From: an uncultured Candidatus Saccharibacteria bacterium | Lineage (GTDB): Bacteria > Patescibacteriota > Saccharimonadia > Saccharimonadales > Saccharimonadaceae | DNA length: 64,000 nucleotides | Reading direction: 5' to 3' | NCBI GenBank assembly: GCA_964397215.1 | Contig: CAYNHE010000001.1 | Coordinates: forward strand, 5,075-69,074 | Part shown: piece by piece, positions 40,030 to 59,708 of the stretch | Position numbering within the stretch: position 1 is the first letter of the stretch | Layout of the letters: each line of letters begins with the position of its first letter | Made by a program: the position numbers and the translations under genes | The notes under the pieces: generated by a model | Seen by the model: only the letters and a program-made list of their open reading frames with translations | The model's database searches: none | Told to the model about the DNA's origin: nothing

Positions 40030-40491
40030 ATGGAGAAGAGAAGCGCGGTCCGCGTAGCGCTGTTCGACCAGAATGGCGCGGTCGCGATTATTAAGGTTGC
40101 AAAACTCCACTATTATAAAATTCCCGGTGGTGGCGTCGAGGTTGGCGAGTCAAATTATGACGCCGCAATACGCGAAACCCTGGAAGAGACTGGCTGCAAT
40201 TGCAAAATTATTGCGGAACTGGGCAGAATCGAGACGGACATTGCTGGTTGGAATATACATGATGTTTCGGATGGTTTTGCAGCGCTGATGGTGGGTGAGC
40301 GTGGTACACCAAGTTATGATGAATGGGAAAAGGAGCGCGGATTTAGCATAGAGTGGTTCAACGACCTCTCGGAAGCCATTGCGATGATTAGTAGCAACGA
40401 AGTTGAAGATCCTGACGCACGATTATTGCAGGAGCGAGATTTGGAATTTCTGAAGCGTGCAGTAAAAGTAGTCGAGTCCACGCATCAATAA
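40030..40491 (+). CDS. NUDIX hydrolase
   Basis: PGGGVEVGESNYDAAIRETLEETG Nudix box. Confidence 0.9.
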   Translation: MEKRSAVRVALFDQNGAVAIIKVAKLHYYKIPGGGVEVGESNYDAAIRETLEETGCNCKIIAELGRIETDIAGWNIHDVSDGFAALMVGERGTPSYDEWEKERGFSIEWFNDLSEAIAMISSNEVEDPDARLLQERDLEFLKRAVKVVESTHQ

Positions 40492-40531
40492 GCAAGACTA
40501 ATGTTGGTGTGGTCGCTGCGCACGGTTCTTC

Positions 40532-40723
40532 ATACTCCTGCAAACAGCGGAGAGAGAAACCGTGATAACGAGAATTCGGGCCGTTTGACGGATAAACGCC
40601 GGACCCATGAAAATCAAAGCGAAATGTACCTTCTGACGTAGCACCACTGCTTGACCAAGCAATGCCGGAAAAACCTGCTCCCCAAAAGAAACCGATTTTC
40701 AAATTAGTGTTACCGCTGCGCAT
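40532..40723 (-). repeat. Variable cassette C1: FISUMP/CLec C-terminal region, 63 codons
   Basis: MRSGNTNLKIGFFWGAGFSGIAWSSSGATSEGTFRFDFHGSGVYPSNGPNSRYHGFSLRCLQE followed by TAT instead of TAG. Confidence 0.85.
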
Positions 40724-40873
40724 GTAATTGAAACTAAATATGTTCTAAAAGCGCAAAAAACTATTAAAAATTGCCAAAAAATGCAAATTTTCTTATTTTT
40801 TTACGAACCTCGAAAAATTTAATTTTCCGAGGTTTACGACGCATCGCTTGTAGGTTACCATTTGCAGTGTGTT

Positions 40874-40968
40874 AGGTGATAAAAAATCGATTTTTATCAC
40901 CTGCTAGTTCGTAAGTAACAGAGGTGGAGTAGAAAATCTAGGTGATAAATTTTTAATTTTTCTCACCT
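40874..40968. repeat. Two 29-bp palindromes AGGTGATAAA-N9-TTT(A/C)TCACCT, 66 bp apart
   Basis: Copies at 40874-40902 and 40940-40968 in the spacer between divergent cassettes C1 and C2. Confidence 0.8.
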
Positions 40969-41033
40969 AAAGAAATTATGAAAAATCCGTATTTTTGACA
41001 AGATTTGGATCAAATTCCATGAAAAAGCATCTC

Positions 41034-41225
41034 GTGCGCAGCGGCTACACCTACATGGGCCTCGGTTTCTTGAGGTTCGCAGGCATCAGTGGCCTCTATT
41101 GGTCGCGTAGCGGCGTTGCCTCTACTACTGCGTACTACCTCCACTTCAATGCCTCTGGGGTGTACCCGTCGAACGGCCCGGCCAATCGTTACTACGGTTT
41201 CCCTCTCCGCTGTTTGCAGGAGTAT
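41034..41225 (+). repeat. Variable cassette C2
   Basis: VRSGYTYMGLGFLRFAGISGLYWSRSGVASTTAYYLHFNASGVYPSNGPANRYYGFPLRCLQE followed by TAT. Confidence 0.85.
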
Positions 41226-41243
41226 GAACTTTGCTTGAGCGAT

Positions 41244-42665
41244 TTACTTTCGTTTAGTTAGCACAATCAGATTCTCGATATGTGGCGTGCGTGGGAAGAA
41301 ATTGAAGGGTTGGATGAATTCTATTTGGTATTTTTCTTGGAGCATAGTAACGTCGCGTGCCTGTGTGATAGGATTGCACGAGAGGTAAATGATGCGCTCT
41401 GGCATGACTGCTAATAATTTTTCGATTAAGTCCTGATGGCACCCAGCGCGTGGCGGATCAAGAATCACGGTCTGGTCAGGCGCGATAAAATCAAGCGCCT
41501 CTTCAGATTTGGCAAGAACTGGGCGAGGGGTGGAGGCAACGCCATATGTTGCTTCTGGGGAGCTCTCGGAGCTTACGACCGGCGATTCAAGATTCCGAGA
41601 GAAACAAATGCTTGCATTTGCTTCCGAGGAATTGCAGAAGCGCGAGACGGCGAAGCCGGCGATGAGCGTAGGGCGCTTCGCGCCTGTAAAGACAGGTTGC
41701 GAAGACGCCCGGTCCTCAAAAGTAATACGCGATGCCATTTTTATCCCTTGTACATTCCTTTCCAACTCTTGATAGGCGGATTTATCACACTCGACCAGTG
41801 TTAATTCGTGGTCGCGAGCAATGGAAAGTCCGATGGTGCCGACGCCGGCATACAAATCAAGAACTTTACCAGGGAGCACCCATTTTTGCATTTCGCGTAG
41901 CGCAAGTTCGTAGACTGGCAAGTTAATTTGAAAGAAGCCATTAGGTGAATAACTGTAAGCTTGACCGAGAATCGTGTCGGTCAGATTGGCAAAAGTTGGG
42001 TGTTTCTGACCATTAACGAAGAGGCCGCCGCTAGTTTCACCAGCTTGGTTCGCTCGGAGGAGTAAACTTTGGTATTTGCGAGCGTCTTCGTGACGGTCGT
42101 TCAGGTCTTTAACAATTTCTTTAGCGCGAGCTAGGATTTCTGGACGTTCGATGCTTGACTCGCTGATCGGAATTTTACGATGGGAGCCACGCGCGTGGAA
42201 AGCCAGATGGATTCGCTGGTCATCATGGTCAAAATATAGCGCATATTCCATTTTATTACGATAATGATAATCTTGACCGTCCGTTACGACTGATTGCACT
42301 GTGAGACTGCCTAGTGCGAGATGCTGCTGGCGCAAAATTTCGACTACTAGCGCACGTTTGGTGGTGAGTTCGCAGTCGTAGGTCATGATTTGCCAAGGAG
42401 AAGTGGCGAGAAAAGCTTCGTCGCGCGGTTTAATGCGTTCCGGAGCAGGATTTTCGATTTCTAGAGCAATGCCTTCGAGATAAGTGCTTTTATCCTTGGT
42501 GATTTCGAATTTGGTGACGGTTTCACCGGGCAACGCATTCCAGAGCATGGCTTTCTTGCCGTTTGCGAGTGTGCCGAGCGCCTGTCCGCCGGGGATGATT
42601 TTAGCGATTTCGACAGAGTCGGTGGAGATTTTGGGCGCGCGAGGCTGATGAGATTTATTCCGCAT
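41244..42665 (-). CDS. RlmD/TrmA-family RNA (uracil-C5) methyltransferase carrying an in-frame ~60-aa insertion
   Basis: YRNKME, FFQIN, LDLYAGVGTIG, ILDPPRAG, YLSCNP, FPRTPHIE. Confidence 0.9.
   Translation of the reverse strand: MRNKSHQPRAPKISTDSVEIAKIIPGGQALGTLANGKKAMLWNALPGETVTKFEITKDKSTYLEGIALEIENPAPERIKPRDEAFLATSPWQIMTYDCELTTKRALVVEILRQQHLALGSLTVQSVVTDGQDYHYRNKMEYALYFDHDDQRIHLAFHARGSHRKIPISESSIERPEILARAKEIVKDLNDRHEDARKYQSLLLRANQAGETSGGLFVNGQKHPTFANLTDTILGQAYSYSPNGFFQINLPVYELALREMQKWVLPGKVLDLYAGVGTIGLSIARDHELTLVECDKSAYQELERNVQGIKMASRITFEDRASSQPVFTGAKRPTLIAGFAVSRFCNSSEANASICFSRNLESPVVSSESSPEATYGVASTPRPVLAKSEEALDFIAPDQTVILDPPRAGCHQDLIEKLLAVMPERIIYLSCNPITQARDVTMLQEKYQIEFIQPFNFFPRTPHIENLIVLTKRK
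41548..41728. mobile_element. Palindromic repeat element (REP/RPE/MITE-like), copy 1, inside the methyltransferase ORF
   Basis: Near-identical to 46791-46972 (reverse complement) and to 59552-59665. Confidence 0.8.
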
Positions 42666-46704: not shown

Positions 46705-46777
46705 AGGGTTATTATATCATGAAAATTATGCTGAATGAAAATGCTTTTTATAAAACTGGTTTCTTATAAAACATATT

Positions 46778-46987
46778 CTAGTAATTGGCAGTATTACTTT
46801 TGAGGACCGGGCGTCTTCGCAACCTGTCTTCACAGGTGCGAAGACGCCCTGCGCTCATCGACGGCTGCGCCGTCTCGCGATTCTGCAATTCCTCGGAAGC
46901 AAATGCAAGCATTTGTTTCTCTCGGAATCTTGAACCGCCGGTCGTAAGCTCCGAGAGCTCCCCAGAAGCAACACTGCCAGTTACTAG
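46778..46987. mobile_element. Palindromic repeat element copy 2 (core 46791-46972) with 15-bp flanking inverted repeats
   Basis: CTAGTAATTGGCAGT ... ACTGCCAGTTACTAG (1 mismatch); internal hairpin GGGCGTCTTCGC-A-ACCTGT-CTTC-ACAGGT-GCGAAGACGCCC. Confidence 0.8.
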
Positions 46988-47115
46988 GACATGCTTCACA
47001 TTAATCTTGAAAAGGCACTCTAGACAACAGCATACTTAAACTAGAATAAAGTTTGAATTATATTAATAACTCAAGCGCAGTTTGCATTTTCTAAAATACT
47101 AAACAATTAAGCGAA

Positions 47116-47182
47116 GTCCATACTTTTTTGAGACTAAAGACTTGGCCTAAGCGGCGACAACGCGGTCTCAAAAAGTATGGAC
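47116..47182. repeat. Long hairpin downstream of cassette C3
   Basis: GTCCATACTTTTTTGAGAC / GTCTCAAAAAGTATGGAC arms; loop contains AAGACTTGGCCTAAGCGGC. Confidence 0.8.
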
Positions 47183-47190
47183 GAGCGCTC

Positions 47191-47382
47191 CTACTCCTGC
47201 AAACAGCGGAGAGAGAAACCGTAGAAACGAGCGCGTGGTTCAAGCGATAAAGATGTTGATCCAGCACCAAGTGCAACAAAGTAAGCGCTATCATCGTCAG
47301 TGCTATTACGAGACCAGTAATATCCGTTAATTCCTACGATTCTCAAGATGCCGCTAAACATGTCCGTATGGCCGCTGCGCAC
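47191..47382 (-). repeat. Variable cassette C3
   Basis: VRSGHTDMFSGILRIVGINGYYWSRNSTDDDSAYFVALGAGSTSLSLEPRARFYGFSLRCLQE*. Confidence 0.85.
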
Positions 47383-47390
47383 AATTCGTT

Positions 47391-47582
47391 CTACTCTTGC
47401 AAACAGCGGAGAGAGAAACCAAGGTAACGATAGGCTTGATTACTTGATACTTCAACATCTATATCACTGAATGAAAAACGGTATGCATTATAAGAATCAG
47501 CGCCAGTACGCGTCCAATAAGGCCCAGCCATGCCAACATATCCTAGAAAACCGTTACCTATGTGAGGTCGGCCGCTGCGCAC
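47391..47582 (-). repeat. Variable cassette C4 (tandem with C3, 8-bp gap)
   Basis: VRSGRPHIGNGFLGYVGMAGPYWTRTGADSYNAYRFSFSDIDVEVSSNQAYRYLGFSLRCLQE*. Confidence 0.85.
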
Positions 47583-47614
47583 GAGTGCTTTTTTGGCCCA
47601 ACCATCGCTTGCTG

Positions 47615-47714
47615 AAGTGTGCGCGGTTTTTCGATTTCTGCGCGTAGATTTTTGATGATTAACAGAGGTAGAACCGGAAAAAGTGTGTGCGGTTTTGCAA
47701 AAAGCGCGCGTAGA
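47615..47714. repeat. Two 34-bp imperfect direct repeats with palindromic cores, 66 bp apart
   Basis: AAGTGTGCGCGGTTTTTCGATTTCTGCGCGTAGA (47615-47648) and AAGTGTGTGCGGTTTTGCAAAAAGCGCGCGTAGA (47681-47714). Confidence 0.75.
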
Positions 47715-47726
47715 ATCAGCTACTTC

Positions 47727-47918
47727 GTGCGCAGCGGTAACATCTATCTAGGATACGGTCTCTTGAGGGCCGCAGACATCTACGCGTTTTACTGGTCATG
47801 CAGCGGCGGTATCTCCACTACCGTTTATAACCTCCACTTCATGGCTTCAGGAGTGTTCTCATCGCATGGCCCAGACTATCGTTACAACGGTTTCTCTCTC
47901 CGCTGTTTGCAGGAGTAG
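47727..47918 (+). repeat. Variable cassette C5
   Basis: VRSGNIYLGYGLLRAADIYAFYWSCSGGISTTVYNLHFMASGVFSSHGPDYRYNGFSLRCLQE*. Confidence 0.85.
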
Positions 47919-47988: not shown

Positions 47989-48021
47989 AGGTTGCGCTTA
48001 GTTTTGTGTTATAATAACCAT

Positions 48022-49206
48022 ATGAATTTTGTGATAATTGGGTTAATTTTGGCGAATTTGGTACTTTTGGTTTTGCTTGTGCTTAGAAAACCAGTAGCGC
48101 GAACCGATACACGCGCTCTTGAGGAACGTTTAATCAGGATTGAAGGTGAGTTAGACAAGTTGACTCCTAAGATTGACACGGCTTTTCGCGATAATCGCAA
48201 GGAGATTGCTGATAATTTGCAGAACATTCAGCGCACGGTGGATACGCGCGTGCGGAGTTTGCAGGACGACAATTCCAAGAAACTCGAAGAAATGCGCCAG
48301 ACGGTGGATGAGAAGTTGCAGGCTTCGGTCGAGAAACGTTTTAACGAGAGTTTTAAGAACATTTCTACGCAGCTTACGCAAGTTTATACCGGCCTCGGCG
48401 AGATGAAAGCCCTCGCGAGCGATGTCGGCGGACTAAAAAAGGTGATGGAAGGCGTGAAAACCCGTGGAATTTATGGTGAAGTGCAGCTCGGTAATTTGAT
48501 TGAAGATTGTCTGAGCAAGGGGCAATATGTCGAAAATGTCATCACCAAACAAGGGAGCACGGACCGGGTGGAATTTGCGATTCGGATGCCAGGCAAGGAC
48601 ACAGCCGAAGTTTTCTTGCCGATTGATTCAAAATTTCCCATCGAGAATTATGCACGCCTCATCGAGGCCTATGATAAGGGTGACAAGGCGCAAATTTTGC
48701 ATTTTAGAAAAGCCCTAGAGGTTGATGTCAAGACGCAGGCCAAGAAAATTTCCACCAAATATCTCGATCCGCCAGCCACCACTGATTTTGGTGTGATGTT
48801 CGTGCCGACCGAGAGTTTGTACGCAGAAATTTTGCGCGTGCCAGGGCTCTCCGAAGAAGTGCGGCAGAAGTTTAACGTGACGATTTGTTCGCCGAGTACT
48901 CTGCCAGTGATTTTGTCGGGGCTTACCATGGGCTTTCGAAGCGTGGCGATTGAGCAGCGTTCGGCAGAAGTTTGGCAGACGCTTGGTAGCGTCAAGGCGC
49001 AGTTTAGTAAGTTTGGCGATTTGCTTGGCGCCGTTAAGAAAAAATTACAAGAAACCACTAACAAAATTTCTGATGCCGAGGTGACTTCGCGGAGTATCGA
49101 GCGCAAATTGCGTGATGTCGAAGTTTTGCCAGAGACCGAATCGAAACCAACCCTCAGCAGCCAGACATCAGCCCTAAGTGATCAAATTTCTGTTGAAGTC
49201 GAGTAG
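48022..49206 (+). CDS. rmuC: DNA recombination protein RmuC
   Basis: N-terminal TM and coiled coil, KTRGIYGEVQL, LPIDSKFP, MFVPTESLY, SPSTL; ATG 48022. Confidence 0.92.
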   Translation: MNFVIIGLILANLVLLVLLVLRKPVARTDTRALEERLIRIEGELDKLTPKIDTAFRDNRKEIADNLQNIQRTVDTRVRSLQDDNSKKLEEMRQTVDEKLQASVEKRFNESFKNISTQLTQVYTGLGEMKALASDVGGLKKVMEGVKTRGIYGEVQLGNLIEDCLSKGQYVENVITKQGSTDRVEFAIRMPGKDTAEVFLPIDSKFPIENYARLIEAYDKGDKAQILHFRKALEVDVKTQAKKISTKYLDPPATTDFGVMFVPTESLYAEILRVPGLSEEVRQKFNVTICSPSTLPVILSGLTMGFRSVAIEQRSAEVWQTLGSVKAQFSKFGDLLGAVKKKLQETTNKISDAEVTSRSIERKLRDVEVLPETESKPTLSSQTSALSDQISVEVE

Positions 49207-57708: not shown

Positions 57709-59616
57709 TTACTCTAGCAAATTCCGCTTGTCCTTACTGAGGAGGTAGAGTCGATCTTTGGCGCGAGTGAGAGCGACGTAGATTAATCTCTGTTGGTCGG
57801 ATTTTTCGGTAGCGCGCGAATCGCCTAGATGTGGGAAAAGTTCGGCGTGTGGATGCGCGCCAAACAGCAAACTTCGGTCGAATTCGAGCAGCAACACTAT
57901 CTCAGCCTCTAGACCTTTAGACTTGTGCATGGTCATAGTGCGCACTTTTGCCGCAAAATCTGCCAGACTGAGCACGCAATTTTCACTACAAACTAGCCCA
58001 AGCGCCTGATGAAATGCCTCTAGTCCAATCCCCAGAAAAGTGGTAAAATTGTGGCGATGAAGCAACATAATCGAAGCCCCAGAGTGGATTTTGACAAGTT
58101 TATAACAGGTTTTTAGCAGCTGCGCCGCCTCAAGCGGAACGTCCAATAATTTAAGCTGGGTAGCCGTCGCGAGCGCGCGGACGAAACGCCCATCGATGCG
58201 CCCATCTTCAAAAATATCTTTGGCGTTAAAACGCGTCCGGGTGTAATTCAGCCATTTTACCCGGCCCTTTTGGTGACTAAACGGTCGCGCCGCTAGCGCA
58301 TTTTTATCATAATGGCTAAGCATAAACGTATTAGCGGTTTCGACCACGGCAATATTGCTCCGGTAATTGGTCGCGATCGGGAGCTTAATCTGATCTTCGG
58401 GAAAATACTGCGCAAAATCGAGAAAATAGCTCGCATCGGAACCGGCAAATCGGTTAATCATCTGCCAGTCGTCGCCCACCACGAAAAGATGCGCAGCTGG
58501 GGCGCGGACACGAATCGCCGTCACCAGCTGCCAGAACAAGAACGAAAAATCTTGATATTCGTCCACGATGAGGTAGCGCAGATTTTCGACGAAAGGATTA
58601 GCCTCTGCAGCGAGTTGCTTGGCAGCTCGGTTCATCAAAATATTAAAATCTATCAGCGGTGGCTTAAGCGAATCCAGATACCGCCGATACACCAGAAATC
58701 CTAGCCGTTCAGCACCAGTGTAGTCAGTGTCTATTTTTTTGGCAGAATCCTGGTTTATAGACCGCTGGCTCTGCTCGGCGCCACTGCAGTTCATCTTTGG
58801 CGGCCCGTCGGGATATTTTTGGCCGGCGCGGACGATGAACGAGGAGATAATCTTCAGTAATTCATCATAGCGCTCGCGGTTGAGACGAGTACGAGGGCTG
58901 TTTGTGACAAGAACCTCATCTAGGGCACGTTGGATGTAGTTTTGTTGAGTTATTTCATCGATGAGGGTGAAATTTTCGCCGTGATTTTTTAATAAATCGT
59001 AGGCAAATTTGTGAAAAGTTGAGGCGATTTTTGATGAAGAATCGCGTTTTAGGCCATTTTCTGGCCTTTCTGGCAAGTTTTGGCTCAAACTAGGGTGGTA
59101 CGGCTCTCGTTGTTCAGAATAGCCATGAGCGTCTTCTGGTGAGGTTTCAGGGGTATTTAGGCTAGTTTTCTGACTTTTTACGTATTCTACGAGCGGAATT
59201 CCATCGATTTGCATGGCCTGGACACGCTCGTTGACTTCGGCAGCAGCGGTGCGGTTAAACATGAAAACCTGAATTTCGTCAAAATTATAGCCACATTTTG
59301 CGACGAGATAGGCAATTTTGGCAACGATAACGCGAGTTTTACCAGAACCGGCGCGAGCGACCACCTGAGTGTTCTTGTGTAAGTCAATGACCGCGGCCAA
59401 CTGCTCGTCGTCGAGCGTGTAGGCCGAGCCGTTTAGCGTCACATGCTCAGAAAACCACACTCTCGCCTCATCAAGGCCAACGAGCTGCCGTACAAACGCC
59501 TCCTTTTCGGACCGGATATCGTCGCAGCCCGTCGTTACGGGTGCGCCGCATCCTACGCTCATCGCCGGCTTCGCCGTCTCGCGCTTCTGCAATTCCTCGG
59601 AAGCAAATGTAAGCAT
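57709..59616 (-). CDS. UvrD-family (helicase IV-like) DNA helicase
   Basis: ARAGSGKT, DEYQD, GDDWQMINRFAG, NYRS, TMHKSKGLE, YVALTRA; start lies inside the repeat element and is uncertain. Confidence 0.85.
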   Translation of the reverse strand: MLTFASEELQKRETAKPAMSVGCGAPVTTGCDDIRSEKEAFVRQLVGLDEARVWFSEHVTLNGSAYTLDDEQLAAVIDLHKNTQVVARAGSGKTRVIVAKIAYLVAKCGYNFDEIQVFMFNRTAAAEVNERVQAMQIDGIPLVEYVKSQKTSLNTPETSPEDAHGYSEQREPYHPSLSQNLPERPENGLKRDSSSKIASTFHKFAYDLLKNHGENFTLIDEITQQNYIQRALDEVLVTNSPRTRLNRERYDELLKIISSFIVRAGQKYPDGPPKMNCSGAEQSQRSINQDSAKKIDTDYTGAERLGFLVYRRYLDSLKPPLIDFNILMNRAAKQLAAEANPFVENLRYLIVDEYQDFSFLFWQLVTAIRVRAPAAHLFVVGDDWQMINRFAGSDASYFLDFAQYFPEDQIKLPIATNYRSNIAVVETANTFMLSHYDKNALAARPFSHQKGRVKWLNYTRTRFNAKDIFEDGRIDGRFVRALATATQLKLLDVPLEAAQLLKTCYKLVKIHSGASIMLLHRHNFTTFLGIGLEAFHQALGLVCSENCVLSLADFAAKVRTMTMHKSKGLEAEIVLLLEFDRSLLFGAHPHAELFPHLGDSRATEKSDQQRLIYVALTRAKDRLYLLSKDKRNLLE

Positions 59617-59672
59617 TTGTTTCTCTCGGAATCTTGAATCGCCGGTCGTAACCTCCGAGAGTTCCTCATAGG
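59503..59672. mobile_element. Palindromic repeat element copy 3, overlapping the helicase start
   Basis: 59552-59665 matches copy 1 with 3 mismatches by hand alignment; left part diverged but still hairpin-forming. Confidence 0.78.
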
Positions 59673-59708
59673 AGCCCTTTGCACGGCAGCCCTCGCCCTT
59701 GCTTGAGT

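Follow-up and report, generated by a model that had tools for sequence, protein, structure and literature searches.

The window, that is, the whole stretch of 64,000 nucleotides analysed here, derives from an uncultured Saccharibacterium and carries on its minus strand an intact gene for an RNA methyltransferase, in which a palindromic repeat lies in frame; the window holds three copies of this repeat (A, B and C), whose conserved cores and private flanking stems are located, together with the host gene, as follows.

41244-42665, minus strand: host gene, intact open reading frame of 473 residues, class I SAM-dependent m5U RNA methyltransferase of the RlmCD/RumA/TrmA type
41509-41546: private outer-stem arm of copy A, encoding YGVASTPRPVLAK on the minus strand; inverted repeat of 41729-41766
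41547-41728, minus strand: core of copy A (181 nt), in frame, residues about 313-373 of the methyltransferase
41729-41766: other private outer-stem arm of copy A, encoding LERNVQGIKMASR on the minus strand
46763-46790: private stem arm of copy B; inverted repeat of 46974-47001
46791-46973, minus strand: core of copy B (182 nt), intergenic, about 85 nt upstream of the start of a CmpB-like gene
46974-47001: other private stem arm of copy B, pairing with 46763-46790
59484-59503: private stem arm of copy C, GCTGCCGTACAAACGCCTCC, overlapping the ancestral 5' end of the helicase gene
59504-59670, minus strand: core of copy C, flanked by the gatB stop (59709) and by the conserved region in which a UvrD-type helicase starts
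59671-59690: other private stem arm of copy C, GGAGCCCTTTGCACGGCAGC, an inverted flank

The assignment of the host gene to the m5U RNA methyltransferases is based on a match to Pfam PF05958, on a Rossmann-type fold and on the presence of the DPPR(A)G and SCNP motifs; RlmCD, RlmC, RumA and TrmA are its sequence matches in the PDB, and an AlphaFold model (mean pLDDT 86.5, from an alignment of 77 sequences) was aligned by Foldseek to RlmCD and RumA with TM scores of 0.73-0.78. In this model the pLDDT falls below 50 solely at residues 313-375, between a helix (295-306) and the third strand of the SAM-binding domain (381-384); the insert, which adds about 69 residues to the enzyme, is thus modelled as a disordered surface loop joining that helix to that strand, and, from the general topology of Rossmann-type methyltransferases, this link would face away from the cofactor and the RNA site. 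All of the family-invariant residues are kept, including DPPRAG, the SCNP cysteine and a late glutamate, and the four clean strain differences found outside the element affect third positions and are without exception synonymous; the gene is hence no pseudogene, a possibility that the first-pass annotation of this DNA had allowed. Given the purifying selection acting on the gene, the simplest view is that the insert is translated through and tolerated by the enzyme; moreover, the frame is kept in all of the five inserts recovered by a DNA search independent of gene calling, which argues for translation of the insert rather than for its removal from the RNA. Translation would accordingly be the probable fate of the insert, judging from the conservation of frame. 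The peptides encoded by the element were searched against a database of 5.8 billion sequences, in which no protein carries them beyond this methyltransferase and the methyltransferase of one related species; a further match (P0121) turned out to be an unrelated eukaryote-like repeat protein and was discarded.

Copy A is the reverse complement of copy B, with an identity of 96% over 129 + 53 nt and a single 1-nt indel; copy C is more diverged, with a core identity of 88-92%. The core of copy A is open in the frame of the gene and in two frames of the opposite strand. The first-pass annotation had described a palindromic element within the methyltransferase, open on both strands and nearly identical to an intergenic sequence starting at 46791, and each part of this description is borne out, including the presence of the quoted peptide in the intact reading frame. 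In public rodent-gut runs, the element is sequenced 4-7 times as deeply as its flanks, and contig ends disclose two more flank pairs, named copies D and E; the copy number, as inferred from depth ratios and contig ends, is at least 5 loci per genome and is estimated at about 5, the identity between cores being 88-96%. Copy A is the only demonstrably coding copy in this genome. It was found in the same orientation in contigs of several independent studies, and copy C in all four of the strains examined. Strains of runs X28, X11 and X29 carry an extra GGA (a 3-nt indel) inside copy C at 59513. A contig of run X28 joins 46743 directly to 47099, lacking both copy B and its AT-rich flanks; this absence is nevertheless ambiguous, because the ends of the joint lie in a multi-copy motif. 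A second contig of the same run has the element end (46972) joined to 47109, the locus 46744-47098 being rearranged between strains. No clean pair of empty and filled alleles within one species was seen in the contigs of the public runs.

When a 22-mer of the core was compared with genome contigs, the single match, on a Paludibacter contig, was at chance level, and metagenome and viral contigs gave none; no match at gathering score was obtained with Rfam in the window, copy B reaching chance level only (E of at least 1.7) at a permissive threshold. Differences between the copies of the adenine-specific type produced by DGRs were absent from the alignment inspected by eye.

As to the surroundings of the intergenic copies, a syntenic relative (L089/L091) has none of copies A, B and C; its spacer between gatB and the helicase gene (L091) measures 32 nt, and its helicase starts MGRPAVLSLAEAREWF. 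In the window, copy C supplies the ATG of the longest helicase reading frame, and the start of the relative's helicase lies downstream of the equivalent point; taken together, the spacer and the helicase start of the relative place copy C at or just upstream of the ancestral helicase start, with an uncertain coding status. The same helicase has, compared with that of L091, 35 and 20 additional residues at 59035-59154 and 58726-58800, encoded by DNA that is not strongly palindromic (z of -2.6 and -0.2). Among the roughly 44 open reading frames of the window that were scanned, no transposase, reverse transcriptase or recombinase family was detected, and RmuC is the only recombination-related family; its gene (47992-49206) adjoins copy B. 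In E. coli, RmuC has been linked to the limitation of inversions at short inverted repeats; its position here is probably a coincidence, since it is kept in relatives that lack copy B. Small reading frames ending in GF(S/P)LRCLQE, present in several copies 75-93% similar to each other, occur at 40388-41261 and 47091-47918, and thereby flank on both sides a block of 6.5 kb that contains the methyltransferase gene.

Both strands of the element fold much more stably than shuffled sequence (z of -8.4 and -9.6), and the strand with the better fold is that whose G-U pairs correspond to A-C mismatches on the other. In copy A this is the plus strand, antisense to the methyltransferase gene, in copy B it is the minus strand, and in both B and C the G-U strand is the one transcribed locally. 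The terminal inverted repeats, TGTTGCTTCTGGGGA and TCCTCAAAAGTAATA, pair through G-U pairs. The better-folding strand of the core also carries, in all copies, GAGAGAAACAA followed by ATG, a Shine-Dalgarno-like run with a start codon (minus strand of 59600-59640 in the window); in copy C it is this ATG that opens the longest reading frame of the helicase. Outside the conserved core, every copy is enclosed by inverted flanks of its own, whose two arms differ mostly by transitions; the counts below come from a scoring that favoured transitions, the comparisons for copies D, E and B being contiguous and ungapped near the core.

Copy A, 38 nt: 19 identical, 16 transitions, 3 transversions
Copy B, about 35 nt: 25 identical, 10 transitions, 0 transversions
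Copy C, about 36 nt: 29 identical, 3 transitions, 4 transversions
Copy D, 28 nt: 23 identical, 5 transitions, 0 transversions
Copy E, 27 nt: 21 identical, 6 transitions, 0 transversions
Copy in the related species (L001), 38 nt: 29 identical, 5 transitions, 4 transversions

A weak direct repeat, ATGGCATCGC and ATGGCGTTGC, had been reported at the ends of the insert; it does exist at copy A (8 of 10 positions) but is not a general feature, as the flanks of copies B, C, D, E and of the L001 copy are inverted, and it does not represent a target-site duplication. Indeed, no target-site duplication and no consistent direct repeat were found at the ends of copies A-E and of the L001 copy.

The distribution of the element among orthologs of the methyltransferase is informative. 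The loop could be measured in 119 of the 120 best homologs, and it is minimal in 80 of these 119. The closest orthologs (P0002-4; 78% identity, 403 residues) have nothing at the insert site. In a different species, on a syntenic contig (P0005, locus L001), the same element occupies the same codon position in the opposite orientation and is again open, being read as VASGELSEL...RSPEVI; this species thus has a flipped copy A, and lacks copy B. In a sister clade (L003, L006-L009, L011, L012 and L014), this loop holds shorter inserts, 84-150 nt long, each of which is a long imperfect palindrome and shares with the large element both an outer stem, TTCNGRGGAGC/GYTCCNNGAA, and an inner hairpin, GCCCGT-RACG-ACGGGC. 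The latter yields PVTTG in some orthologs, PRNDG or ARDDG in others; the same hairpin being translated in different frames, it is the nucleic acid and not the peptide that is conserved. Across the clade, the related hairpin elements in this loop range from 84 to 234 nt. The expectation that relatives would simply lack the segment therefore holds for the closest orthologs and only in part for the sister clade, whose shorter segments are homologous at the level of nucleotides and hairpins rather than of protein.

Conservation of structure is evident also from the substitution pattern. In the eight sister-clade inserts, changes on both sides are seen in 23 of 30 pairs, and pairing holds in 91.6% of the cells, whereas shuffles reach 72% and slid controls 51% at the most; in the large family compensatory changes affect 15 of 83 pairs. 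The sister-clade inserts are 0.76-0.93 identical to each other, compared to 0.37-0.52 at the four-fold degenerate sites of the host gene, and the cores of the window and of L001 are 87.5-89.7% identical (0.875 for the flipped core) compared to 40% at such sites. The sense-strand fold is stronger than the antisense one in nine orthologs out of nine. Because copies A and B are 96% identical while the silent sites of the two species are saturated, copy A appears young, either by recent insertion or by recent conversion. When a tree was built with the loop masked, all inserts of at least 20 residues fell inside one clade of 33 sequences, within which their distribution is patchy and needs at least 3-4 changes; close relatives without the insert exist for both P0001 and P0005. 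Within the 10-20 kb read of the other genomes, the small hairpins were single-copy, multiple copies being shown for the rodent lineage only; a search of the window and of 27 loci with a covariance model of these hairpins yielded no additional copy.

Among close relatives, then, elements may be present, absent, internally deleted or in either orientation. In L010, the segment 3847-3897 keeps the outer stem and one hairpin end of the insert of L014 (1242-1358), with 96% identity over 24 nt; this stub looks like an internal deletion. The loop-flank duplex at the same L010 segment has an energy of -19 kcal/mol. As to the difference in orientation between the window and L001, tree parsimony and the youth of copy A would lean towards independent entry or replacement, whereas the similarity of the flanks would lean towards a flip in place; the arms, being palindromes in their own right, can be aligned in either direction with about the same quality. 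Insert-free relatives hold small stems at sites that are filled elsewhere, namely GCGGG/CCCGC in L002 and CAGCCGG/CCGGCTG upstream of the helicase in L091, which may be taken as no more than suggestive, stems of this length often arising by chance. The conserved codons of the host gene that border the loop (L-A/E-R-N and V-L-A-K; 41509-41530 and 41745-41766 in the window) are also partly reverse-complementary in several orthologs, insert-free ones included, which points to a natural weak hairpin at the site; the difference in this pairing between filled and empty sites is not significant (p = 0.40, with two anchors mis-set).

On the whole, the family of copy A is best read as a small, hairpin-rich, non-coding and apparently undescribed repeat of rodent-gut Saccharibacteria. 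We assign a probability of about 0.55 to the view that it is a low-copy fold-back repeat family, mobile or gene-converting, which is tolerated in frame in a permissive loop of the methyltransferase. This view is favoured by the occurrence of the element at unrelated loci, by its lineage-specific presence, by an identity far above the neutral level and by the occurrence of both orientations; its low copy number, the lack of a target-site duplication and the lack of a transposase among the scanned reading frames of the window count against it. The strand asymmetry and the private stems suggest a single-stranded fold-back intermediate together with hairpin-associated entry or with extension of a palindrome. 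According to such a scheme, the element would spread as a single-stranded, strand-specific fold-back, or be refreshed by gene conversion in that form; entry would take place at or near small hairpins of the target with the help of a putative trans-acting enzyme, and the methyltransferase loop would be a recurrent and tolerated landing site. An element of this kind would be selfish in nature. A more specific proposal, which we regard as tentative and rather doubtful, is that these are members of an undescribed class of structure-guided fold-back elements of Saccharibacteria, in which the folded core alone is copied as one specific strand and either enters the tip of a small hairpin or creates such a hairpin through an inverted copy of the target, producing the private closing stem; the element could then lie in either orientation, or flip, with the frame kept.

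The alternative that deserves the most attention, even if it appears improbable, is that the hairpin acts in cis as a functional RNA structure of the methyltransferase mRNA, for instance an autoregulatory one or one affecting stability, inherited vertically in the clade, with copies B-E representing the same regulatory module elsewhere. The occupancy of one loop across the whole clade, the strong covariation and the better folding of the sense strand in all nine orthologs fit a functional mRNA structure equally well, and the excess of insert identity over that of the host silent sites and the coincidence between the G-U strand of copies B and C and the locally transcribed strand also speak for it. 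The nine orthologs are, however, not independent events; the better-folding strand of copy A is here antisense to the gene, despite the purifying selection acting on the latter, close relatives are frequently without the element, copy B lies upstream of the likely CmpB promoter, a match in Rfam is absent, and the identity between copies A and B implies recent copying instead of ancient vertical descent. The related idea that the element mimics a substrate of the enzyme (H35/H70 of the 23S rRNA, or a T-arm) was discarded, as no convincing likeness emerged from the comparison; the window is without rRNA.

A somewhat less probable possibility is that a small natural hairpin of the loop was enlarged where it stood by replication template switching at quasi-palindromes, with occasional ectopic gene conversion or illegitimate recombination accounting for the other copies and recombination between arms for the flips. 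Outward correction of a palindrome would indeed yield private stems, and the small stems at insert-free sites of L002 and L091, the natural partial complementarity of the loop-flanking codons (LARN and VLAK) and the stub hairpin left after internal deletion in L010 as compared with L014 all agree with it; stems of 5-7 bp are nonetheless common by chance, the flank-duplex test is the non-significant one mentioned above, and such growth explains neither a 181-nt core that is 88-96% identical at no fewer than five unrelated loci nor an identity of nearly 90% between species whose silent sites are saturated. It is very improbable that the insert is an ordinary lineage-specific protein loop or domain that resembles intergenic sequence by chance: the open frame and a length that is a multiple of three would agree with a protein segment, but the frame in which one nucleotide hairpin is read changes from ortholog to ortholog, and in L001 it is the opposite strand that is read, observations which already contradict it, and both the low pLDDT and the existence of intergenic copies add to the case against it. 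Least credible of all is an artefact of assembly by which a collapsed or mis-joined repeat was placed into the gene; short-read contigs do break at the element, yet contigs from independent runs and studies (X4, X9 and X28) cross the two methyltransferase-element junctions with the orientation unchanged, and the ortholog of the other species carries the element too.

The fold-back repeat family may be compared with several known systems. The Rickettsia palindromic elements (RPEs; Ogata et al. 2000, summarised in PMC10969869) form families, each with a conserved peptide that it encodes. Like these, the element is a short dispersed repeat of palindromic structure, which occurs in intergenic DNA as well as in frame within housekeeping genes, adds a peptide where the protein fold allows it and occupies orthologous sites in related species (PMC10969869); a core of 181 nt at five or more loci is comparable to the dispersed palindromic repeats of about 100-150 bp, and insertion in frame with retention of the host protein is seen in copy A and, in the other orientation, in L001. 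A conserved family peptide, on the other hand, is not encoded, the hairpins being read in different frames and on either strand; the element also belongs to a different phylum and has no known sequence relation to RPEs, is present in about 5 copies instead of dozens, possesses a private outer stem of inverted flanks and re-uses the same loop across a clade. Membership of an RPE family by descent is not to be expected, the host being a Saccharibacterium. The analogy with Rickettsia drawn in the first-pass annotation is thus fair for behaviour and fails for the peptide, for copy number and for the number of demonstrably coding copies, which is one; its remark that no such element was known from this phylum agrees with the searchable literature, in which no description of palindromic elements or MITEs from Saccharibacteria or Patescibacteria was found. 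The best reading is that the element behaves like an RPE but is built differently.

A second comparison is with bacterial MITEs lying inside genes, such as QMITE1 of Coxiella, intragenic ERIC and large BOX elements (PMC10969869, PMC5896051), which share small size, terminal inverted repeats, a strong predicted structure and occasional in-frame fusions, together with the lack of a coding capacity of their own. Unlike these, the element has inverted, not direct, flanks and shows no target-site duplication; the window revealed neither a parent insertion sequence nor a transposase, and compensatory change preserves its internal hairpins. REP doublets (REPINs) are mobilised by RAYT transposases and are extragenic, high-copy arrangements of two short tagged REPs tied to a RAYT gene. 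The REP super-families are treated in PMC3733652. The element resembles REPINs in being an imperfect palindrome that folds as a single strand, in a strand asymmetry that fits a single-stranded intermediate and in its long vertical persistence, but no arrangement of the REPIN type was seen in the window. In the attC sites of integrons, structure is conserved over sequence, one folded strand is active and the core sites are R'' and R' (RYYYAAC and GTTRRRY). Conserved structure and the prevalence of one folded strand are likewise found in the element, but R''/R' core sites were not found by eye at its ends, neither an integrase nor a cassette array was seen in the window, and the element resides inside a coding loop. 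Finally, in the model reportedly due to Ripley, template switching at a quasi-palindrome perfects or extends the arms of a hairpin by using the opposite arm as a template; this would give copy-specific outer stems, but as a mutational process it does not disperse a conserved 181-nt core.

The usual cut-and-paste model of MITEs does not fit an element whose conserved core is closed by a stem peculiar to each copy, which leaves no target duplication, which lies in frame in either orientation and whose evolution is strongly compensatory; the architecture of core and private stem, together with the compensatory changes, points to a structure-dependent mechanism. Saccharibacteria can reportedly now be transformed. 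For annotation, inserts of this type inflate protein lengths, break alignments and fragment short-read assemblies. If the tentative class of structure-guided elements were real, fold-back elements could live inside essential genes of a genome of roughly 1 Mb, with the methyltransferase loop as a recurrent landing site. The ultra-small genomes of Saccharibacteria are thought to be streamlined; these organisms would nevertheless tolerate, and perhaps propagate, hairpin repeats inside essential enzymes, echoing Rickettsia in a very different lineage with reduced genomes.
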